Below, piece after piece: positions 14,214 to 59,895 of a stretch of DNA of 64,000 nt. Position 1 is the first letter of the stretch. Each line of letters begins with the position of its first letter. The DNA comes from an uncultured Gammaproteobacteria bacterium. GTDB taxonomy: Bacteria > Patescibacteriota > Patescibacteriia > UBA1558 > GWA2-36-10. The stretch lies in assembly GCA_964604515.1 (NCBI GenBank), contig CAZRZA010000002.1:1607-65606 (forward strand), written 5' to 3'. A program made the translations under genes and the position numbers. The notes under the pieces are model-generated. The model made no database searches. It worked only from the letters and a program-made list of their open reading frames with translations, and had not been told where the DNA came from.

Positions 14214-15059
14214 TTATTTAATATCCCTTTTTATTTTATATAATTTTAAAGTATTATATAAGAGCATGGCGACGGTCATTGGGCCTACTCCTCCGGGGAC
14301 AGGAGTAATATGGCTTACTTTTTCAAAGACATCAGTATAATCAACATCTCCAACTATATGTTTTTGATCTATTTTATTAGTACCAATATCAATAATAATA
14401 CTATTTTTTTTAACCATTTCTTTTTTAATAAAGAAAGGATTGCCAATAGCAGCTATTAAAATGTCTGCTTCTTTACTTAATTCAGATAGATTAGTAATAC
14501 TAGGTTTTATTATTTTAGTATGTATATTTTTATCCTCTAATAATTTTTTTAAAGGCTTATAAAAAACATCAGATTTAGAAATAATTAAAGCTTCTTTATT
14601 CTTTAAATCTTCTTTAGTAGCTTCTAATAATTTAATAATACCCAAGGGTAAACCAGGAACAAAAGTATTTTTATTATCTAATATTTTTTCAATATTTTTA
14701 GGATGAAAACCATCAGCATCTTTGTTTATATCAATAGCTTCTATTATTTTATCTGTATTTAAGTGTTTTGGTAATGGTAATTGTATTAAGATAGCATCTG
14801 TATGTTTATCTTTATTAAGAAAGTCTATAGTTTCTAAAACATGTTCTTCTGAAACATCTTTAATCATTAAATATTCATGAAACTCTATACCTACTTTCTG
14901 ACAAGCTTTCTTTTTTAAATTAACATATAAATTAGAAGCAGGGTCTTCTCCAATTAAAATAACAGCTAAATTTGGTTCTAAACTTTTTTGTCTTATTTCT
15001 ACACCTATTTCTTTTTGTATATCTTTAGCTATACTTCTGCCGTCTATTATTTCTGCCAT
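14214..15059 (-). CDS. folD: bifunctional methylenetetrahydrofolate dehydrogenase/cyclohydrolase
   Basis: FolD motifs (ILIQLPLP, NPDxDGFH, TPVPGGVGPMTVAMLL). Confidence 0.9.
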   Translation of the reverse strand: MAEIIDGRSIAKDIQKEIGVEIRQKSLEPNLAVILIGEDPASNLYVNLKKKACQKVGIEFHEYLMIKDVSEEHVLETIDFLNKDKHTDAILIQLPLPKHLNTDKIIEAIDINKDADGFHPKNIEKILDNKNTFVPGLPLGIIKLLEATKEDLKNKEALIISKSDVFYKPLKKLLEDKNIHTKIIKPSITNLSELSKEADILIAAIGNPFFIKKEMVKKNSIIIDIGTNKIDQKHIVGDVDYTDVFEKVSHITPVPGGVGPMTVAMLLYNTLKLYKIKRDIK

Positions 15060-15060
15060 A

Positions 15061-16317
15061 TTATAGTTCTTTATATAAAGGAAAATTATCCATTAATTCT
15101 AATGCTTTATTTTTATTATCTTCTGTTGCTTTTTTATTCTTTAGAGTATCAATAATTAAATCAGCTATTATCTCCATTTCTTTTTCTTTTAATCCTCTAG
15201 TCGTTAAAGCAGGCGTACCTAGTCTAATACCAGAAGGATCCATAGGCTTCCTTTTGTCAAAAGGTATCATATTTTTATTAACAAAAATATAGATATTTTC
15301 TAAAAGACTTTCTGCTTCTTGACCGGATAAATCTAAATTGCTCATATCTAATAATAGTAAATGATTATCTGTTCCTCCGGAGATAATTCTTAATCCTGCT
15401 TCCTTAAATCTATTCTCTAGTATCTTAGCATTCTTGATTACTTGTTTTTGATAATCTATAAATTCTGGTTGTAAGGCTTCTTGAAAAGCAACTGCTTTCG
15501 CTGCAATAATATGTTCTAGAGGACCACCTTGCATTCCAGGAAAAACAGCAGAGTCTATTTTCTGAGCTAAACTCTTTTTACCCTCAGGATTTAATCTGTC
15601 TTCTTTCTTTGATAAAATCATTGCTCCTCTAGGACCTCTTAATGTCTTATGAGTAGTAGTGGTTATAATATCTGCCACATCTATTGGACTATTATGGAGC
15701 TTAGCAGCTATTAATCCAGCAATATGAGCCATATCAACCATTAAGTATGCTTGAACTTCATCTGCTATTTTTTTAAATTTAATAAAGTCTATTTCTCTGC
15801 TATAAGCGGAAGCTCCGGCTAATATTATTTTAGGTTTATGAACTAAAGCTTGATTCCTTACTTCATTAAAATCTATTAATTCTGTTTTTTTATCAACTCC
15901 ATAAGAAACAAAGTTGTAAAACTTACCAGAAAAATTAACAGGATGACCATGAGTTAAATGACCACCATGTGCTAAAGAAAAACCTAAGATAGTTTCATGT
16001 AATTCAGCTAAAGCAAAATAGGCTTCCATATTAGCACTAGAACCAGAATGAGGTTGAACATTAACATGTTCTGCTCCAAATAATTCTTTGGCTCTGGCTA
16101 TGGCTAAAGACTCAGCTTGATCTATATATTTATTACCACCATAGTATCTCTTATGAGGATAACCTTCGGCATACTTATTAGTTAAAATACTGCCAGCTGC
16201 TTCTAAAACAGAAGGAGAAACAAAGTTTTCAGAGGCTATCATTTCTGCTCCTATTCTTTGTCTTTTTAATTCTTTCTCAATTATTTCTGAGATTTGTTTA
16301 TCTTTTATATTATTCAT
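15061..16317 (-). CDS. glyA: serine hydroxymethyltransferase
   Basis: SHMT motifs (LIASENF, YYGG, PLP lysine region [13 protein letters not shown]). Confidence 0.95.
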
Positions 16318-18126: not shown

Positions 18127-18156
18127 AAAACAGCTCTTTTTAAAGAGCTGTTTTTA
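18127..18156. terminator. bidirectional terminator between convergent genes
   Basis: aaacagctcttt-tt-aaagagctgttt hairpin with flanking A/T runs. Confidence 0.6.
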
Positions 18157-19755
18157 GTTTAATTCTTTAGTCATATAAGTTTCTTCTATTTTATATCCTA
18201 ATTTTTTATAATATTCTCTAACTCCTATACCAGAAATAACGGCTATTTTATTTAATTTATTTTCTTTGGTTATTTCTTCTGCTTTTTGCATTAATTTTTT
18301 ACCTAAACCAACATGTTGAGTTTTACTAATTTCATCATCTTCTTTAGTATGAACTGGAATCATTTTACCATAAACATGTAATTCTCTGACTAAGGAAGAA
18401 TTAATTAATTCAGGGAATATATTCTTTTTACTATTATCATTAAATCTTAATCTTAAGAAAGCATATACTTTATTATCATATTCATAAGAAAGAAAGTATT
18501 CTAAACCCTGAGAAGCTTCGTATTTTATAATTACTAACTCTACTTTATTAATATCTTTTGTTTTACCCTTTACTTCTCGACACCTTAAACAGTGACAGGT
18601 TTGTTTTCTTTCTGCTAATTTTTTTTGTAAGTATTGTCTTAAATTAGTTACTTTATTACCAGCGATAATACTTTCTTCAGGAATATCTCTAATTAATCTA
18701 TTTATTCTAATATAGGGAGGAGTAATTAACTTAACTTTTAATAATAATTCTAATAATTCTTTTTCTGAATATGGTTTATACTTACCATCTTCATACCATT
18801 TATTTAATTGAGCATATTCATTAACTATACAAGGGTATATTTTTATTTGATCAGGTTGTAAGTCAGGAGTATTAAAAGCATATTTAAACATTTTAAGGTC
18901 TTTGTTTGGAGTAGATCCAGGTAAATCAGGCATATAATGATGATCTACCTTAAAACCGACTTCTTTTAATAATTTAGTAGCTTTAATACTATCTTCTATA
19001 GTATGACCCCTTCTAATTAATTTAAGTATTTTATTATCACTATGTTGTATTCCTAATTGTACTCTGGTACAGCCTAAATTACGAAAGTTTTTAATTTCTT
19101 TGGCATCTATATAATCAGGCCTGGTTTCTAAAGTTAATCCTATGACCTTGTACTTAGTTGTTTCATTTATCTTTTGTTCTTCTTTTAAGCTTAAGGCTTT
19201 TCTCTTTTTAGCATTAATAGTATTAGCAGCATAGAAGAGATCTCTAATAAACTTGTCTTGATAATTTTGAGAATAAAAAGACCAGGTACCTCCTAAGATA
19301 ATTAATTCTAATTTATCTACTTGATGACCATTATTTTCTAAAGCCTTAATTCTCATTACCACCTGTCTAACAGGATCAAAGAGGTTTAATTTAGCTCTCA
19401 TCGCTGCTGGTTCATTAGATAAATAGCTTTTAGGCATATCTGGTTCTGTGGGACAATAAACACAAACATGGGGACAGGATTTTTTTGGTTTAGACAAGAC
19501 AGTAATCACAGAAACACCTGATAATGTTCTAACAGATCTTTTTATTAAGTATTTTTCTAAATTAGAATTCTTCTTTAATTTATTATTTTTTACTAATTGA
19601 CGATAAGTAGAAATAAGTGTAGCTTTAGGAAGAGGTGAAATCTTATTTTTATTAAATAATTTACGAGAAGAAATCATAAAATCTCTTTGACTAGTATATT
19701 CTACTTTAGTCAAAGACTTAACTATATCTTCTATTATATTTTGCTTAATATTCAT
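18154..19755 (-). CDS. elp3: Elp3-family radical SAM tRNA wobble-uridine (cm5U) modification enzyme with C-terminal GNAT domain
   Basis: Radical-SAM cluster motif CPHVCVYCP, Elp3 central domain, C-terminal acetyltransferase motif (HVGLGKKLMQKAEEI); 533 aa like bacterial/archaeal Elp3. Confidence 0.85.
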   Translation of the reverse strand: MNIKQNIIEDIVKSLTKVEYTSQRDFMISSRKLFNKNKISPLPKATLISTYRQLVKNNKLKKNSNLEKYLIKRSVRTLSGVSVITVLSKPKKSCPHVCVYCPTEPDMPKSYLSNEPAAMRAKLNLFDPVRQVVMRIKALENNGHQVDKLELIILGGTWSFYSQNYQDKFIRDLFYAANTINAKKRKALSLKEEQKINETTKYKVIGLTLETRPDYIDAKEIKNFRNLGCTRVQLGIQHSDNKILKLIRRGHTIEDSIKATKLLKEVGFKVDHHYMPDLPGSTPNKDLKMFKYAFNTPDLQPDQIKIYPCIVNEYAQLNKWYEDGKYKPYSEKELLELLLKVKLITPPYIRINRLIRDIPEESIIAGNKVTNLRQYLQKKLAERKQTCHCLRCREVKGKTKDINKVELVIIKYEASQGLEYFLSYEYDNKVYAFLRLRFNDNSKKNIFPELINSSLVRELHVYGKMIPVHTKEDDEISKTQHVGLGKKLMQKAEEITKENKLNKIAVISGIGVREYYKKLGYKIEETYMTKELN

Positions 19756-20419
19756 GTCTATTAAAAAAGAATTAAAAAAAATTTATAATACTATTTCCCA
19801 GGAATTCTCTAGTTCTCGTGCTTTTCCTTGGGAAGAGTTACAACTTTTTATACCATATATCAAAGATAATTTCAAGGTCTTAGACTTAGGCTGTGGTAAC
19901 GGTAGATTAATAAAGATATTAGAAGAAAATGATTGTCAGATAGAATATACAGGACTAGACTTTAGTAATAAGTTAATAGAACAGGCTAGAGAATCTTTTC
20001 CTCAATATACCTTTAAGGTAGAGGATATGAATAATATAGACTATGAAGAAAATAGTTTTGATATGGTTTTTATGATAGCTTCTTTTCATCATTTAGAAAC
20101 TAAAGAAGAGAGATTAGAATTATTAAAGAAAGTAAATAAAATATTAAAACCAGGTGGTTATTTATTCATGACTAATTGGAACTTATTTCAAAAGAAATAT
20201 TTTAAGTTTCTTTTCAAGAATATATTTAAAAAAAAATCTTGGAATGACTTTTTTATTCCTTGGCAAACTTATTCTCAGAAAGGAGAAAGGCTATGGAGAT
20301 TTTATCATAGCTTTACTAAGAGAGAGTTAGAGAATTTATTAAAAAAGGCTAACTTTAAATTAAAACCACAAGGGGTTTATAAGACAGAATTTAATATAAA
20401 TAGTTTTGTTAAAAAGTAG
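19754..20419 (+). CDS. Trm9-like class I SAM-dependent tRNA (mcm5U) methyltransferase
   Basis: Motif I VLDLGCGNG; Trm9 signature FDMVFMIASFHHLETKEERLELLKKVNKILKPGGYLFMTNWNLFQ (compare yeast Trm9 FDFAISIAVVHHWSTRERRVEVIRHVLSKLRQGGQALIYCWALEQ), DFFIPW, RFYH; start codon overlaps elp3 start (CATG). Confidence 0.75.
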   Translation: MSIKKELKKIYNTISQEFSSSRAFPWEELQLFIPYIKDNFKVLDLGCGNGRLIKILEENDCQIEYTGLDFSNKLIEQARESFPQYTFKVEDMNNIDYEENSFDMVFMIASFHHLETKEERLELLKKVNKILKPGGYLFMTNWNLFQKKYFKFLFKNIFKKKSWNDFFIPWQTYSQKGERLWRFYHSFTKRELENLLKKANFKLKPQGVYKTEFNINSFVKK

Positions 20420-20453
20420 CATTGGACGCTGCTTTTTATTTTTCCTTTATATA

Positions 20454-20462: not shown

Positions 20463-20506
20463 ATAGCTATATTAAAATATTTCTAATGTCATTATTTCAA
20501 AAAATT

Positions 20507-21733
20507 ATGAAAAAGATTAAAACTAAAGTAGGGGCTAAGATTTCTACAGAAACAAAGCTACTTTTGAGTGTAGTTATGCTTTTATCTTCCATAGGTTTTA
20601 TGGGATTTGCTAATGGTCTAGTAAGGGCACCGGCAAAAGTTATTGAAAAAAGAATTGTAAAATTAGAAAGAATTACAGAAGAAAACAATAAGAAAATAGA
20701 GAAATTGGTGGAAAAGAAGAGAATATTGAAAAATGAGTTTTTTTCTGGAGGAGAACTTGGTAATACTATTGATGATACTGAAGAAGGAAGTGTAAAATTT
20801 TACTCTGTAGGAACCTTAAACTGTTGTACAACATATGGTAGGTATGGCATGGAAGGATTAGAGGGCGGTGGATGTGCTACTGATAATATGCCAGCTTATA
20901 CAAGCTCTGCTAATGAATGTTGCTATGTAAAAGATTTTTATGAGGAAGCTCATTATGCAGGAGATGATATATACGGTTGTTATGACGAAGATCGTGGGTG
21001 TCAAGAAGACGAATGTGGAGTATGTGGTGGTGATGGCAGTTCTTGTATGGAAGAAGGGGAGCTGTTTGCATGTGATAATAATTCTCAGTGTGGATCTGAA
21101 TTTTGTAATGATAATGGATATTGTGAAGAATATGAAGTGTTTTGCCCTAACGGTGATGAATGTAATGGAGGTCAAACATGCGATAGTGAGTGTATTACCA
21201 ATGGTTTCGCGTACCCTTGTTGTGTCCCTACCTTTATTATTGATAATTCCGTAGATTGTGAGGGCACATTTAATGGAGATGTTGTCTTAGACGAATGTGG
21301 GGTATGTGGCGGTGATAATAGTTCTTGCGCAGACTGTTCTGGAACCCCAAATGGTAATGCTATGTTAGATAATTGTAATACTTGCGATGCTAATCCTAAT
21401 AATGACTGTTCTCTAGATTGTAGTGGTGTTTGGGGAGGTAATGCTTATGAGGATTATTGTGGAGTATGTGATTCTGATCCAGATAATAATAATCAATGCT
21501 CTAATTATTGTTCAGGTCATTCAGATTGTAACACTGATCAATATTGCTATAATCATATTTGTGAAACATATAGGCCAGATGGCTGTTCCTGGAACTTTCC
21601 TTGTGATGAGGGGGAGAGTGATTGTAACTTTAACTCTGATTGTGCTGGTAATTTAGTGTGTGGTACAAATAATTGTAGTTATGGCGGTATAAATGGTGTG
21701 CCAGACTTTGCAGACTGTTGTATGCAGCCATAG
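20507..21733 (+). CDS. secreted/membrane-anchored Cys-rich protein, paralog A of shared-leader family; ADAMTS-like CGVCGGD repeats
   Basis: N-terminus MKKIKTKVGAKISTETKLLLSVVMLLSSIGFMGFANG shared with ORFs 22713 and 23100; coiled-coil stalk; about 60 Cys with DECGVCGGDGSSC / DECGVCGGDNSSC / DYCGVCDSDPDNNNQC repeats. Confidence 0.65.
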   Translation: MKKIKTKVGAKISTETKLLLSVVMLLSSIGFMGFANGLVRAPAKVIEKRIVKLERITEENNKKIEKLVEKKRILKNEFFSGGELGNTIDDTEEGSVKFYSVGTLNCCTTYGRYGMEGLEGGGCATDNMPAYTSSANECCYVKDFYEEAHYAGDDIYGCYDEDRGCQEDECGVCGGDGSSCMEEGELFACDNNSQCGSEFCNDNGYCEEYEVFCPNGDECNGGQTCDSECITNGFAYPCCVPTFIIDNSVDCEGTFNGDVVLDECGVCGGDNSSCADCSGTPNGNAMLDNCNTCDANPNNDCSLDCSGVWGGNAYEDYCGVCDSDPDNNNQCSNYCSGHSDCNTDQYCYNHICETYRPDGCSWNFPCDEGESDCNFNSDCAGNLVCGTNNCSYGGINGVPDFADCCMQP

Positions 21734-21856: not shown

Positions 21857-22690
21857 ATGGAATTTTTAAAAGAACCTTTTATACTTATATTTTTATTATT
21901 AATATTTTTTGTCTATTTACTATTAAAGAAGTCAGGTAATAGTAATAAAAGCATTAAAGAATTAAATATTTTTAAGAGCAAAAAGTATTCTTCTAATTTA
22001 GCTATTAGTAAATTTACTATTGATATTACTAAAACAGCTATTGTAGAAGGATTAGCTTCTGCTATTGTAGAAGGAAAGGTGCCTCAAACACTATTAAATA
22101 AAAGAGTATTAAAAATAGATATGTCATCTATATTGGCTGGTACAAAATATAGAGGAGAATTCGAAAATAGATTTAAATCTTTAATAGACAGTATCATTGC
22201 TATGGATAAACAGAATATAGTATTTATTGATGAGATTCATACTATAGTACAAGCGGGTGGTGCAGAAGGGGCTATTGATGCAGATGATATAATAAAACCG
22301 CCTTTAGCGAGAGGAGAATTACAAATGGTTGGTACTACTACCACTAAAGAGTATAAAGAATATATAATGCCGGATACTTCTTTAACTAGAAGATTTGAAC
22401 CATTAAAGATAGCGGAACCAAATAAAGTAGAAACATTAAGAATATTAAAAGGATTAAAGAAAAACTATGAAGAATATCATAATGTAATAATTAATGATGA
22501 TTTATTAAAGAAAATTATTGACTTCTCTTTTAAGACTAAAACTAGGGTTTTTCCAGACAAAGCAATAGATATCTTAGATGAAGTATGTGCTAAAGTTAGA
22601 TTAGATAATATTAAGAGTAATAAAACTATAAAGATTACAGCTAAAGACATAAAAGATATATCTAAATATTTCAAAAAACAAGAAATTTAA
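21857..22690 (+). CDS. membrane-anchored fragment of ClpB/ClpA AAA+ D1 domain with degenerate Walker A
   Basis: N-terminal TM FILIFLLLIFFVYLLL; then KTAIVEGLASAIVEGKVP...ILAGTKYRGEFENRFKSL...VFIDEIHTIVQAGG...LARGELQMVGTTT...RRFEPL...FPDKAIDILDEV collinear with ClpB D1, but P-loop GxxGxGKT is replaced (FTIDITKT) and the N-domain, M-domain and D2 are absent. Confidence 0.55.
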   Translation: MEFLKEPFILIFLLLIFFVYLLLKKSGNSNKSIKELNIFKSKKYSSNLAISKFTIDITKTAIVEGLASAIVEGKVPQTLLNKRVLKIDMSSILAGTKYRGEFENRFKSLIDSIIAMDKQNIVFIDEIHTIVQAGGAEGAIDADDIIKPPLARGELQMVGTTTTKEYKEYIMPDTSLTRRFEPLKIAEPNKVETLRILKGLKKNYEEYHNVIINDDLLKKIIDFSFKTKTRVFPDKAIDILDEVCAKVRLDNIKSNKTIKITAKDIKDISKYFKKQEI

Positions 22691-22712: not shown

Positions 22713-23075
22713 ATGAAAAAATTTAAAACAAAGATTGGAGCTAAAATCTCTACAGAAACTAAGCTATTGTTAAGTACTATGATGGTCTTAGCTGGCATGG
22801 GATTTATTGGCCTTGCTAATGGATTTGTAACACATCAAGCTAAGCCATATAAGGAACAAATAATTAAACATGAAAAACAAATAACAGAGAACGAGAACTT
22901 TGCTGAAGCACTTATAGGTTACATGAAAACACCACCTATTATGCGTGGAGCAAGCGGTTGTGGAAACGCATGTAAGGTAGGAAGCGGTTGTGTTTCTGGT
23001 TGTCCTTGTGCTCCTTACTCTGGTCTTCCTGGATGGGGAACATGTACAGGTAAACCACCAAAAGAAATAGAATAA
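22713..23075 (+). CDS. small secreted Cys/Gly-rich protein, paralog C of shared-leader family
   Basis: MKKFKTKIGAKISTETKLLLSTMMVLAGMGFIGLANG leader; C-terminus GASGCGNACKVGSGCVSGCPCAPYSGLPGWGTCTG. Confidence 0.6.
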   Translation: MKKFKTKIGAKISTETKLLLSTMMVLAGMGFIGLANGFVTHQAKPYKEQIIKHEKQITENENFAEALIGYMKTPPIMRGASGCGNACKVGSGCVSGCPCAPYSGLPGWGTCTGKPPKEIE

Positions 23076-29954: not shown

Positions 29955-30182
29955 TTATTTGATGCTCACCTTACAGCCTGTACCACCGCAGCTATTACAA
30001 GGGTGAGTTATTGGTATAGTTTTTTCTCCAAAACATGTTCGGCATGTTTTAGTGCCACCAAAATATCTAATTTCTATACCATCACCATTACACTTTACAC
30101 ATAGTATAGACTCTGTCACTCCTTTACCATTGCCATCACAGTTAATACATTTTTCCTTTATTATTTCATATGCTTCAGCCAT
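29955..30182 (-). CDS. stand-alone DnaJ-type zinc-finger (4x CxxCxGxG) mini-protein
   Basis: 75 aa with CINCDGNG, CVKCNGDG, CRTCFGEK, CNSCGGTG. Confidence 0.5.
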   Translation of the reverse strand: MAEAYEIIKEKCINCDGNGKGVTESILCVKCNGDGIEIRYFGGTKTCRTCFGEKTIPITHPCNSCGGTGCKVSIK

Positions 30183-30203: not shown

Positions 30204-30431
30204 TTAAAATATTATTCCATCAACCTTTCCAGTACTATTACATCTATCACAGCCATTTTCTATTAATAGTTCTTTATGCCCATCACACTTAGTACATATT
30301 GTTATAATTTTTCTATATACACTAAAATTACCAGTACCATTACATTTTGGACACATTTTATAGTACTTATCTTTAGCACCAGTACCATTACAAAGTATAC
30401 AGTGTTTTTTTATTTTTCTGTATTTTACCAT
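30204..30431 (-). CDS. stand-alone DnaJ-type zinc-finger mini-protein (tandem paralog)
   Basis: 75 aa with CILCNGTG, CPKCNGTG, CTKCDGHK, CDRCNSTG. Confidence 0.5.
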   Translation of the reverse strand: MVKYRKIKKHCILCNGTGAKDKYYKMCPKCNGTGNFSVYRKIITICTKCDGHKELLIENGCDRCNSTGKVDGIIF

Positions 30432-44951: not shown

Positions 44952-45042
44952 GGAGAGGTGGCTGAGTGGTCGAAGGCGCCTGCTTGGAAAGCAAGTGAAT
45001 GATTATATTGTTCCGCAGGTTCGAATCCTGTCCTCTCCGCCA
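44952..45042 (+). tRNA. tRNA-Ser (type II, long variable arm; anticodon probably GGA)
   Basis: GGAGAGG acceptor stem, GTGGCTGAGTGGTCGAAGGC D-arm, TTCGAATCC T-loop, CCTCTCC-G-CCA 3' end, ~19-nt variable arm; one mismatch in the anticodon stem. Confidence 0.8.
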
Positions 45043-54072: not shown

Positions 54073-54149
54073 TGTGGCTCCGAGGGAGGGATTCGAACCC
54101 ACGGCCAATTGATTAACAGTCAACTGCTCTACCACTGAGCTACCTCGGA
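54073..54149 (-). tRNA. tRNA-Asn (GUU)
   Basis: Reverse complement TCCGAGGTAGCTCAGTGGTAGAGCAGTTGACTGTTAATCAATTGGCCGTGGGTTCGAATCCCTCCCTCGGAGCCA; anticodon loop CTGTTAA; one U-U mismatch in T-stem. Confidence 0.75.
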
Positions 54150-54150
54150 T

Positions 54151-54227
54151 TGGTAGCGGGGGTCGGACTTGAACCGACGACCTCCAGGTTATGGGCCTGG
54201 CGAGCTGCCAACTGCTCTACCCCGCGT
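54151..54227 (-). tRNA. initiator tRNA-fMet (CAU)
   Basis: Reverse complement CGCGGGGTAGAGCAGTTGGCAGCTCGCCAGGCCCATAACCTGGAGGTCGTCGGTTCAAGTCCGACCCCCGCTACCA; near-identical acceptor/T-arm to E. coli tRNA-fMet; unpaired 1:72 (C-U). Confidence 0.8.
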
Positions 54228-54277
54228 CATGTGATGATGTCTAGTATATGTTAAAATTATATATTTGACAAGCCTAA

Positions 54278-54354
54278 TGGTAGCAGGGGCGAGAATTGAA
54301 CTCGCGACCTCAGGCTTATGAGTCCTGCGCTCTAACCAACTGAGCTACCCTGCC
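54278..54354 (-). tRNA. elongator tRNA with CAU anticodon (Met or Ile2/lysidine)
   Basis: Reverse complement GGCAGGGTAGCTCAGTTGGTTAGAGCGCAGGACTCATAAGCCTGAGGTCGCGAGTTCAATTCTCGCCCCTGCTACCA; G1-U72 paired so not an initiator. Confidence 0.75.
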
Positions 54355-54362
54355 AAATGCAT

Positions 54363-54449
54363 TGGTACCGAAGGAGGGAGTCGAACCCACACCCTCTTGC
54401 GAGGACTGGATTTTGAATCCAGCGCGTCTACCAATTTCGCCACTTCGGC
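54363..54449 (-). tRNA. tRNA-Leu (CAA)
   Basis: Reverse complement GCCGAAGTGGCGAAATTGGTAGACGCGCTGGATTCAAAATCCAGTCCTCGCAAGAGGGTGTGGGTTCGACTCCCTCCTTCGGTACCA; long variable arm; 5' half identical to E. coli tRNA-Leu(CAA). Confidence 0.85.
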
Positions 54450-58267: not shown

Positions 58268-59032
58268 ATGTCTAGAATAATTTCTATAGTTAATCAAAAG
58301 GGTGGCGTAGGTAAAACTACTACTACTATAAATTTAGCGTCTTGGCTAGCAGAATTAGGCAAGCGTATTTTAATTATTGACATAGATCCTCAAGGCAACG
58401 CTTCTTCTGGACTAGGCATTGATCATCATAATCTTCAGAGGGGATTATATGAGGTATTATTAGATGATAATATAAGGATTAGAGAAGTAATTAAAGCTTA
58501 TAAACCTAATTTCCATATTTTACCAGCAACTGCTGATTTAGCAGGAGCTAGTATAGAATTAGTAGAAAAAGAAAATAGAGAATTTAGATTAAAAGAAGAA
58601 TTAAATCAAATAGATAATCTTTATGATTTTATTTTAATAGATAATCCTCCTTCCTTAGGACTGTTAACTATCAATGGTTTAACAGCTGCACAAGAGGTAT
58701 TGATACCTGTGCAATGCGAGTATTATGCTTTAGAAGGGTTATCACAGTTATTAAGTACAATTAATTTAATAAAAGAACATTTACACCCGGATTTAAAAAT
58801 ATTAGGAGCTATTATGACTATGTATGATAATCGTAATAAGTTATCTGCCGCAGTATTTCAAGAGCTATACCAACATTTTCCTCATAAAGTTTTTCGAACA
58901 GTAATACCTCGTAATGTCACTTTAGCAGAAGCTCCTTCTCATGGTTTGCCGGTTAAAGATTATGATGCTAATTCTGCAGGAGCTAGGGCTTATCGTCGCT
59001 TAGCACAAGAAATTATTTTAGAAAACAATTAA
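58268..59032 (+). CDS. parA: chromosome partitioning ATPase ParA/Soj
   Basis: Deviant Walker A KGGVGKTTTTINLA, DIDPQGNAS, IDNPPSL. Confidence 0.9.
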   Translation: MSRIISIVNQKGGVGKTTTTINLASWLAELGKRILIIDIDPQGNASSGLGIDHHNLQRGLYEVLLDDNIRIREVIKAYKPNFHILPATADLAGASIELVEKENREFRLKEELNQIDNLYDFILIDNPPSLGLLTINGLTAAQEVLIPVQCEYYALEGLSQLLSTINLIKEHLHPDLKILGAIMTMYDNRNKLSAAVFQELYQHFPHKVFRTVIPRNVTLAEAPSHGLPVKDYDANSAGARAYRRLAQEIILENN

Positions 59033-59043
59033 AATAAAAATAT

Positions 59044-59895
59044 ATGTCAACTTTAGGAAAAGGTTTAGGGTCTCTAATACCTAATAAAGTAAATAAAGAA
59101 GAAAAAAAAATAAACAATGATTTAGATTCAGAGCACAGAATTGTTTATTTACCTTTAGAAGAAATAGATATTAACCCTTATCAACCTCGTTCTCATTTTG
59201 ATAAAGAAAAATTAGATGAATTAGCAGAGTCGATTAAGAAACATGGTATATTACAACCAATAGTAGTTTCTAAGGTTAATAATAATTATGAATTAATAGC
59301 GGGAGAAAGAAGATTAAGAGCAGCTAAACTTTTAAACTTAGAAGAAGTTCCAGTAATAGTTAGAGAGGTGTCAGATAGGGATAAATTAGAATTATCTATT
59401 ATTGAAAATATTCAAAGACAGAATTTAAATCCAGTTGAAGAAGGAAAAAGCTATCAAAGATTAATGGAAGAATTTGGTTTAACTCAAGAAGAAATAGCTA
59501 AACAAGTTGGTCGAGGAATATCTATTGTTTCTAGTAGTGTTCGTATTTTAAAATTACCAATTATTATTCAAGAGGCTTTATCTGCCAGACAATTGTCTCT
59601 TTCTCATGCTAAAATTATTTTAACTTATCCTAATAAGTTAGAACAAATCAAAATATTTAAAAAAATACTTAAAAATGATTTAAGTATTAGGCAATTAAAG
59701 AATATTTCTGGTAAAGAAATAGAAAAGATAAATGAAAAGAAAGCAAAAGACCCTATCATTACTTCTTGGGAAGATAAATTAACCAAAGCTTTAGGTTCTA
59801 AGGTTAAAATAAATAAAAAAAGAGAAAGAGGAGATATTAAAATTTCTTTTTTCTCTAATGAAGAATTAAAAAATATCTTAGATAAATTAGAATAA
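59044..59895 (+). CDS. parB: chromosome partitioning protein ParB/Spo0J
   Basis: ParB box GERRLRAAKL, HTH region LTQEEIAKQVGRGISIVSSSVRIL. Confidence 0.9.
   Translation: MSTLGKGLGSLIPNKVNKEEKKINNDLDSEHRIVYLPLEEIDINPYQPRSHFDKEKLDELAESIKKHGILQPIVVSKVNNNYELIAGERRLRAAKLLNLEEVPVIVREVSDRDKLELSIIENIQRQNLNPVEEGKSYQRLMEEFGLTQEEIAKQVGRGISIVSSSVRILKLPIIIQEALSARQLSLSHAKIILTYPNKLEQIKIFKKILKNDLSIRQLKNISGKEIEKINEKKAKDPIITSWEDKLTKALGSKVKINKKRERGDIKISFFSNEELKNILDKLE

Follow-up and report, generated by a model that had tools for sequence, protein, structure and literature searches.

Does a bacterial genome encode the Elp3 and Trm9 steps by which eukaryotes turn the wobble uridine of tRNA (U34) into 5-carboxymethyluridine (cm5U34) and then into its methyl ester, 5-methoxycarbonylmethyluridine (mcm5U34)? 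This question is raised by a 64-kb stretch of contig CAZRZA010000002.1 (the window, to which all coordinates refer unless another locus is named). In the open reading frame (ORF) list of the window, a gene for an Elp3 homologue (18154-19755, minus strand, 533 aa) stands head to head with a gene for a Trm9-like class I S-adenosylmethionine (SAM)-dependent methyltransferase (19754-20419, plus strand, 221 aa), predicted to convert cm5U34 into mcm5U34. The two starts diverge and overlap by 2 nt within the palindrome CATG (19753-19756, in the context attCATGtct at 19750-19759): the elp3 start codon is CAT at 19753-19755 on the minus strand, and that of the methyltransferase gene is ATG at 19754-19756 on the plus strand. 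Both genes are intact, identifiable and conserved, and their linkage spans phyla. The pair is probably a two-gene wobble-uridine module, in which Elp3 would make cm5U34 and the methyltransferase would esterify it to mcm5U34.

The minus-strand ORF was confirmed by its sequence as a full-length Elp3 homologue of the tRNA U34 cm5 synthase family, with the activity predicted. Its match to the curated model TIGR01211 (ELP3) reaches 530.7 bits, where the cut-off is 350, with residues 21-532 covering model positions 12-522, and it contains the Pfam domains Radical_SAM, Radical_SAM_C and Acetyltransf_1. The solved relatives are the Elp3 proteins of Methanocaldococcus infernus (6iaz, 1.9e-117), Dehalococcoides mccartyi (5l7j, 2e-106), and yeast and human (about 1e-89). 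The radical-SAM [4Fe-4S] motif CPHVCVYCP, encoded at 19450-19476 on the minus strand, aligns with the cluster cysteines of the solved Elp3 proteins, and its C94, C98 and C101 are invariant in the Elp3 alignment (A3). The motif has the form CX3CX2CP in the window protein and in all 52 bacterial Elp3 ORFs examined (loci L015-L094); in the archaeal M. infernus Elp3 it is CX4CX2C. Possibly, the CX3CX2CP spacing distinguishes a bacterial clade of Elp3.

The other two functional regions of Elp3 are also present. A linker cysteine triad, CHCLRC (C387, C389, C392; 18588-18605, minus strand), aligns with CRCIRC of the M. infernus and D. mccartyi proteins and represents the zinc site that characterises Elp3 from bacteria and archaea; the zinc role of this triad has been described (PMC6367351). 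The C-terminal GNAT/KAT acetyl-CoA domain is encoded at 18193-18501 (minus strand), where Acetyltransf_1 matches residues 419-521 with 23.3 bits (cut-off 20.7). It includes QHVGLGKKL, an acetyl-CoA-binding Q-x-x-G-x-G motif aligned with QHMGYGRML of M. infernus Elp3, in which Q480, H481 and G485 are invariant (A3), and the C-terminal GIGVREYYKKLGY block is present as well. The first-pass annotation of this DNA had proposed exactly such a protein, full-length and with both the radical-SAM cysteines and the GNAT domain, and the proposal stands.

Residues 1-75 of Elp3 form a basic N-terminal extension (19531-19755, minus strand) with 17 K/R against 5 D/E. Its sequence is kept in the related loci L095, L097 and L007, whose methyltransferases are 56-81% identical to the one in the window. 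In archaeal Elp3, a comparable extension is required for tRNA binding, and it is missing from D. mccartyi Elp3 (PMC6367351). Some gene callers place the start at M27, which yields a protein of 507 aa; this shorter form was rejected, the equivalent of M27 being V, S or R in the three relatives. In the same three loci, Elp3 begins with Met exactly at the CATG junction and residues 1-26 are kept. Therefore, the 533-aa start is taken as real.

For the plus-strand ORF, the best solved relative is Trm9 of Yarrowia lipolytica in its complex with Trm112 (5cm2_Z), found with the single sequence at 59.3 bits and 4e-15 over residues 20-208. A profile built from 30 bacterial homologues, with Trm9 left out, still placed 5cm2_Z at the top (98.8 bits against 83.8 for the runner-up), a moderate margin over the other PDB chains. 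The AlphaFold2 model of the protein has a pLDDT of 93.4 and a Rossmann-type strand order. When it was compared with the PDB by Foldseek, Trm9 ranked second with a target-normalised TM-score of 0.83, the first rank being taken by an uncharacterised methyltransferase of Methanosarcina mazei (3sm3).

The residues of the active site speak more directly to function. In yeast Trm9 (ScTrm9), the substitutions R29A, D72A, H116A, W145A, W168A, R241A, Y243A and N271A abolish or cripple activity, and Y18, H115 and R241 were modelled as cm5U contacts (Létoquart et al., PMC4678810). The window protein has Y11 for Y18, R22 for R29, D44 for D72, H112 and H113 for H115 and H116, W142 for W145, W170 for W168, R182 for R241, Y184 for Y243, and N214 for N271. 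R22, D44, H113, W142, W170, R182 and Y184 were paired through the alignment with Yarrowia Trm9 (A1); the aligned part of Trm9 does not include the counterparts of Y11 and N214, which were assigned tentatively, Y11 by its spacing to R22 and N214 by position and pattern. The Y-to-R spacing is 11 residues in the window protein, yeast and Yarrowia alike, the HH-to-W spacing of 29 is equal in the window protein and Trm9, and the R-x-Y arrangement is common to them.

Y11 and R22, predicted contacts of the cm5U carboxylate, belong to the N-terminal Trm9 motif IYNTISQEFSSSR (19784-19819, plus strand), and both residues are invariant in the 30 homologues. D44 lies in SAM-binding motif I, VLDLGCGNG (19877-19903, plus strand), as seen in the translation and the alignments. 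The His112-His113 pair (20087-20092, plus strand), the second member of which corresponds to the essential H116, is invariant in A1 and in the alignment of the 30 bacterial homologues (A2), and is found in 61-62 of 64 sequences. All signature residues are invariant in A2 except W170, which is W, F or Y, and the series Y-R-D-HH-W-W-R is nearly invariant over 62 species-representative homologues. One methyltransferase from Robinsoniella (L081) has neither the Trm9 signature nor an Elp3 neighbour. No usable in-frame start lies between residue 1 and the invariant Y11, F18 and R22, which fixes the start of the protein. Every residue that mutagenesis showed to be necessary for the activity of yeast Trm9 is thus conserved in the window protein and, apart from two variable positions, in its relatives from bacteria, and this supports its designation as Trm9-like. 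The Trm9 type had been read from the sequence in the first-pass annotation, and the motifs quoted there (CPHVCVYCP in Elp3; VLDLGCGNG, IASFHHLETKEERLELLKKVNKILKPGGYLFMTNWNLFQ, DFFIPW and RFYH in the methyltransferase) all occur in the translations.

The association of the two genes was measured from both sides. A scan with the methyltransferase profile, taking one genome per species of the Genome Taxonomy Database (GTDB), gave 80 loci, 56 of which combine a full-length member with 1.8 kb or more of sequence upstream of it. A divergent Elp3 gene lies immediately upstream in 39 of these 56 species loci, and 10 more have an Elp3 gene elsewhere in the 6-kb flank or in another orientation, which brings the total to 49. 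An independent scan from the Elp3 side, made on metagenome contigs, yielded 64 loci with at least 1 kb upstream; a Trm9-like gene is divergent and adjacent in 45 of them and lies 1-2 kb away in 2. Surrounding genes were completely different between lineages in the loci inspected individually, and the clustering of all ORFs from the 80 loci showed only the methyltransferase and Elp3 to be broadly conserved. Chance is excluded as an explanation of the pairing. A neighbourhood conserved from both directions strongly supports functional coupling.

The CATG arrangement, pointed out from the sequence at first reading, is likewise real, conserved and not attributable to chance. The exact junction recurs in at least seven other species (L095, L097, L007, L023, L030, L033 and L072), and L024 has CATATG. 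One of them, L072, is a contig of 56% GC labelled Anaerolineae. Other species have spacers of 10-300 bp between elp3 and the methyltransferase gene. Distances between maximal ORFs overestimate the overlap, and only exact junctions were relied on.

According to the record labels, the loci come from many classes of Patescibacteria, in WWE3, Dojkabacteria, Chloroflexota (Anaerolineae and others) and Fermentibacteria. The named relatives of the window methyltransferase come from metagenome-assembled genomes (MAGs) of Komeilibacteria, Parcubacteria and the 'Patescibacteria group'. Two archaeal MAGs are also among the loci, including a Crenarchaeota MAG (L035) in which the neighbouring Elp3 and methyltransferase genes are co-directional. 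The pair is also present in D. mccartyi. The sequence of its Elp3 was rebuilt from the PDB alignment and located in genome CP019867.1 (L098, 4283-6380), where a divergent gene for a Trm9-like methyltransferase of 224 aa lies 43 bp upstream of Elp3. This methyltransferase shares 34% identity with its counterpart in the window, and FHH, W, PW, RYY and N are all present in it. The pair had been called unusual for a bacterium; this is correct relative to model bacteria, but the pair is common in Patescibacteria and Chloroflexota.

The window itself is bacterial in content, and with the named relatives this places the host among the Patescibacteria (CPR). It has a GC content of 28% and carries genes for GyrA, RuvB, ribosomal protein S1, GroEL/GroES, UvrA, bacterial DnaG and RelA/SpoT, together with bacterial TopA, RNase J, sigma-70 and ParAB. 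The elp3 and methyltransferase genes resemble the housekeeping genes of the window in composition (GC 26-26.5%, GC at third codon positions (GC3) 0.15 and 0.23), and the order folD-glyA-elp3/trm9 is common to the window and its relatives. Since composition is housekeeping-like, synteny is kept and the pair extends over whole phyla, the horizontal acquisition suggested earlier is not supported as a recent event. Recent transfer was rejected on composition and synteny.

The proposed pathway has two steps. In the first, for which orthology is the guide, a stand-alone Elp3, as in archaea, would add a carboxymethyl group to C5 of U34 to give cm5U34. It would use the radical-SAM [4Fe-4S] domain and the acetyl-CoA-binding GNAT domain, and the basic N-terminal extension would aid tRNA binding. 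In the second step, indicated by the catalytic residues and the gene linkage, the Trm9-like enzyme would use SAM to methyl-esterify the cm5U carboxylate to mcm5U34. The predicted task of R22 and H113 is to position the carboxylate, that of H112, W142, W170 and N214 to hold the uridine. Later 2-thiolation on some tRNAs may follow. The precedents are archaeal: Elp3 from archaea has formed cm5U in a reconstituted reaction (PMC13315578), and Trm9 of Haloferax volcanii has been reported to make mcm5U (PMC7663514).

Several observations weigh against this reading. The methyltransferase has no NCBIfam model above its cut-off and matches only generic Pfam families (Methyltransf_25/11, about 1e-22), and the fold comparison is compatible with Trm9 without telling it apart from generic methyltransferases. 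Among the Chloroflexota homologues, Y184 and N214 are not constant. The D. mccartyi methyltransferase is more divergent, with N at the position of D44 and GCGCG for GCGNG. The linkage has its exceptions: Elp3 is absent from the 6-kb flank in 7 of the 56 methyltransferase loci, and a Trm9-like gene is absent from the flank in 17 of the 64 Elp3 loci, among which no alternative neighbour recurs. Trm112 is the obligate partner of eukaryotic Trm9 and its demonstrated partner in H. volcanii (PMC5372719, PMC6144793). With Trm112 and YcaR sequences as queries, phmmer found no Trm112-like ORF in the window (ORFs of at least 30 aa) or in the 80 related loci (at least 45 aa). Six small ORFs of the window, including the Cys-rich candidates, gave no Pfam hit to Trm112p (PF03966); their Pfam matches were just two DnaJ-type zinc-finger mini-proteins and weak zinc ribbons. 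No third conserved neighbour gene was present in the 80 loci, only antisense shadow ORFs. Finally, according to a 2020 review of Elp3, xcm5U34 had not been directly demonstrated in any bacterium (PMC7663514).

Some of these points could also be read as signs that Elp3 makes cm5U34 and the methyltransferase acts elsewhere, on another Elp3-derived intermediate, another tRNA position or the Elp3 protein, so that the product would be, for example, cm5U or ncm5U only. A methyltransferase claimed by no curated family, an unspecific fold match, the lack of Trm112 nearby and two signature positions varying in Chloroflexota all agree with such a substrate. Against it, the residues with which Trm9 positions the carboxylate and the uridine are kept at equal spacing, and linkage to Elp3 is what is expected of consecutive pathway steps. 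This alternative is therefore unlikely, though it survives better than the others.

Consecutive steps on cm5U34 are also favoured over a relationship with the bacterial enzymes MnmL and MnmM (YtqA and YtqB), which act downstream of MnmEG and carry out the conversion of cmnm5(s2)U through nm5 to mnm5(s2)U. Adjacency and fusion of MnmL and MnmM are documented (bioRxiv 10.64898/2026.05.18.725915), and the MnmL/YtqA model TIGR01212 is the second-best NCBIfam match of the radical-SAM protein. Nevertheless, this match scores 82.3 bits where 180 are required and extends over residues 201-377 only, as opposed to the full-length match to TIGR01211. The GNAT domain and the linker Cys triad, both defining features of Elp3, are present, the methyltransferase has Trm9 as its best solved relative, and no chain named MnmM is among the 60 listed PDB matches. 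The curated cut-offs largely refute this very improbable reading.

Still less credit can be given to an ordinary class I enzyme (UbiE/MenG, BioC or CmoA/CmoM-like) that stands next to Elp3 by accident. The generic Pfam matches would allow it, as would weak NCBIfam similarities to BioC, UbiE, UbiG and CmoA. The JGI names of the homologues differ, being UbiE in some cases and 'TRM9' or 'alkB family 8' in others. However, the scores lie far under the cut-offs (BioC 55.2 against 185, UbiE 47.7 against 216, MenG/UbiE 43 against 158, CmoA 33 against 193, DVU_1556 60.1 against 155, and UbiG weak). The Trm9-specific residues are conserved, and adjacency is kept in dozens of species whose neighbourhoods are otherwise different. 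Synteny statistics refute this reading for practical purposes, and the profile searches suggested for the methyltransferase place it below the cut-off of UbiE, BioC, CmoA and the other named families. Hardly conceivable is a non-tRNA role of the pair with Elp3 as a protein (lysine) acetyltransferase: Elp3 was originally described as a histone acetyltransferase and PDB entries are still so named, but in bacteria, archaea and eukaryotes alike, acetyl-CoA hydrolysis by Elp3 requires tRNA as a trigger (PMC6367351), and the archaeal enzyme has the reconstituted cm5U activity cited above.

A broader proposal goes beyond the two-gene module, namely that the bacterial Trm9 homologue works without Trm112 and that the Elp3-Trm9 pair is the native xm5U34 route in much of Patescibacteria and Chloroflexota, replacing MnmE/MnmG. 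This is possible but somewhat doubtful at present. Neither mnmE nor mnmG was found in the 64-kb window. In many bacteria, the neighbours of parA and parB are rsmG, mnmG and mnmE; the parA and parB genes of the window (58268-59895, plus strand) instead lie between an M23 peptidase gene and relA/spoT. The tRNA genes of the window comprise a cluster of four at 54075-54449 on the minus strand (Asn-GTT, two Met-CAT and Leu-CAA) and tRNA-Ser(GGA) at 44952-45042 on the plus strand. As none of them has U34, none is a candidate substrate of the Elp3-methyltransferase pair.

As for expression, the abutting starts leave no intergenic space for promoters, which implies that promoters and 5' untranslated regions lie in the coding region of the partner or that the mRNAs are leaderless. 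The overlapping regulatory or 5' regions at the CATG junction may couple the expression of both genes. The first of these possibilities, promoters inside the partner's coding sequence, had been stated in the first-pass annotation; it is reasonable from the position of the starts, but the number of sigma-70 consensus sites did not exceed chance (9 against 6.6 ± 2.9 expected), and the transcripts may instead be leaderless. The two best sigma-70-like matches, at 19733-19760 (minus strand) and 19761-19789 (plus strand), fall within coding sequence. The better one (11/12, minus strand, 19760-19733) was rejected as AT-rich noise, since its transcription start would fall inside the conserved N-terminus of Elp3. 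The conserved codons for Tyr11 and Asn12 of the methyltransferase account for one TATAAT near the junction.

Both genes end in terminator-like hairpins. At the 3' end of the methyltransferase gene, a hairpin followed by a T-run lies at 20410-20438 (plus strand), one such element being found against 0.2 expected. A 12-bp palindromic hairpin at 18127-18154, between the 3' end of elp3 and a convergent ORF of 485 aa, is terminator-like on both strands.

Among the neighbouring genes, the one-carbon metabolism genes folD and glyA adjoin elp3 in the window (14214-16317, minus strand), as they do in L007, L095 and L097. A serine hydroxymethyltransferase (SHMT)-like ORF is present in 8 of the 80 species loci, and the association may be local synteny only. 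In L097 (3685-5192), a locus with 66% identity to the window in its methyltransferase, genes for a Peptidase_U32 protein (420 aa) and a 4Fe-4S ferredoxin (78 aa) directly follow the Trm9-like gene. U32 proteins include TrhP, which with a ferredoxin hydroxylates U34 to ho5U. The two genes of L097 could be a second set of wobble-uridine enzymes clustered with the pair.

Just 3' of the methyltransferase gene, the window encodes two Cys-rich proteins without a Pfam match (20486-21733 and 22713-23075, both plus strand). Their N-termini are nearly identical, with K-[IV]-GAKISTETKLLLS and then a hydrophobic segment, and they resemble secreted or anchored paralogues. Between them lies a gene for a protein of 277 aa (21857-22690, plus strand) with AAA and AAA_lid_9 domains only; it is Clp/Hsp100-like and far below the length of a full Clp ATPase. 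L095 has a 319-aa version of it at the same position. Elsewhere in the window, two tandem genes (29955-30182 and 30204-30431, minus strand) within a 712-bp gap between larger genes encode the DnaJ-type mini-proteins. Each has 75 aa and consists solely of CXXCXGXG zinc-finger repeats (Pfam DnaJ_CXXCXGXG, and more weakly Anti-TRAP).

In the literature, bacterial Elp3 has been attributed to 'some bacterial clades' and called 'a rare example' (PMC6367351), attributed to 'numerous bacteria' (PMC13315578), and restricted in the 2020 review to Dehalococcoides, 'one specific anaerobic bacterial clade' (PMC7663514). According to a 2017 review of Trm112, searches for bacterial homologues of the methyltransferases that partner Trm112 had detected none (PMC5372719). 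Literature searches on Trm9 in Chloroflexi and on Elp3 or MnmG in Patescibacteria gave no relevant result. The two reviews fit the earlier description of the system as under-described. The evidence supports the pair as a bacterial addition to a known pathway; it is widespread among Patescibacteria and Chloroflexota, and under-described within the literature searched.

If the assignment of the pair to mcm5U34 synthesis is true, bacteria would join archaea and eukaryotes as users of Elp3 and Trm9, and the textbook division between MnmEG in bacteria and Elongator in archaea and eukaryotes would change. The methyltransferases would be the first bacterial Trm9 orthologues and would offer structural and mechanistic studies a compact Trm9 that may not need Trm112. 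In Patescibacteria and Chloroflexota, thousands of genes now annotated as 'class I SAM-dependent methyltransferase' or 'UbiE' could be given a new name. The pair bears on the question of the Elp3 field whether bacteria have xcm5U34 derivatives at all. Were the more tentative replacement of MnmE/MnmG also true, mcm5(s2)U, hitherto a eukaryotic and archaeal nucleoside, would be normal in a large share of bacterial diversity, and the recurrent CATG starts would reflect co-regulation from one overlapping control region.

Two known bacterial systems are comparable with the pair in part. CmoM of Escherichia coli is a class I methyltransferase that carries out an analogous reaction, the SAM-dependent methyl esterification of cmo5U34 to mcmo5U34, but its substrate arises in a different pathway, through ho5U and cmo5U with CmoA and CmoB. 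For the window methyltransferase, neither CmoM nor CmoA was above the NCBIfam cut-off, and no CmoM chain was among the 60 listed PDB matches. The MnmL-MnmM system of Bacillota is alike in combining an Elp3-related radical-SAM enzyme with a class I methyltransferase, adjacent or fused, that act on the C5 side chain of U34. It differs in its chemistry, which is demodification of cmnm5U followed by N-methylation and depends on MnmEG, and MnmL is without a GNAT domain.

A close counterpart is the eukaryotic Elongator with Trm9-Trm112 (ALKBH8-TRMT112 in mammals, Trm9-Trm112 in yeast), in which the same two catalytic activities as predicted here convert U34 into cm5U34 and then mcm5U34. The domain architecture and cofactor motifs of Elp3 match, and the active-site residues of Trm9 correspond one for one. 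Unlike Elongator, the window locus lacks Elp1, 2, 4, 5 and 6, with Elp3 alone as in archaea, and there is no Trm112 gene in the neighbourhood. The window Elp3 has the canonical CX3CX2C, whereas the archaeal and eukaryotic proteins have a longer spacing. The bacterial genes are paired; the eukaryotic genes are not.

Archaeal Elp3 is like the window protein in standing alone and in having a basic N-terminal extension and the linker Cys triad. An Elp3-Trm9 gene cluster has been noted in Sulfolobus solfataricus (PMC5372719, PMC6144793). The adjacency in the Crenarchaeota MAG L035 echoes this cluster; the genes of L035 are co-directional, whereas the bacterial pairs are divergent and often have abutting starts. 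Archaeal Trm9 has been demonstrated with Trm112, and the host of the window pair is a bacterium, as shown by gyrA, ruvB, rpsA, groEL, uvrA, dnaG, relA, topA and RNase J.

Within bacteria, a close reference is D. mccartyi Elp3 (PDB 5L7J), the structural model for bacterial Elp3. It likewise has CX3CX2C and is 42% identical to the window Elp3 (A3), but lacks the basic N-terminal extension of about 70 residues seen in the window protein and other Elp3 proteins of Patescibacteria. Its methyltransferase neighbour was not mentioned in the Elp3 literature examined, a scope outside which Glatt et al. (2016), a possible place of mention, falls. Because D. mccartyi is cultivable and carries the pair, the prediction can be tested there directly by nucleoside mass spectrometry.

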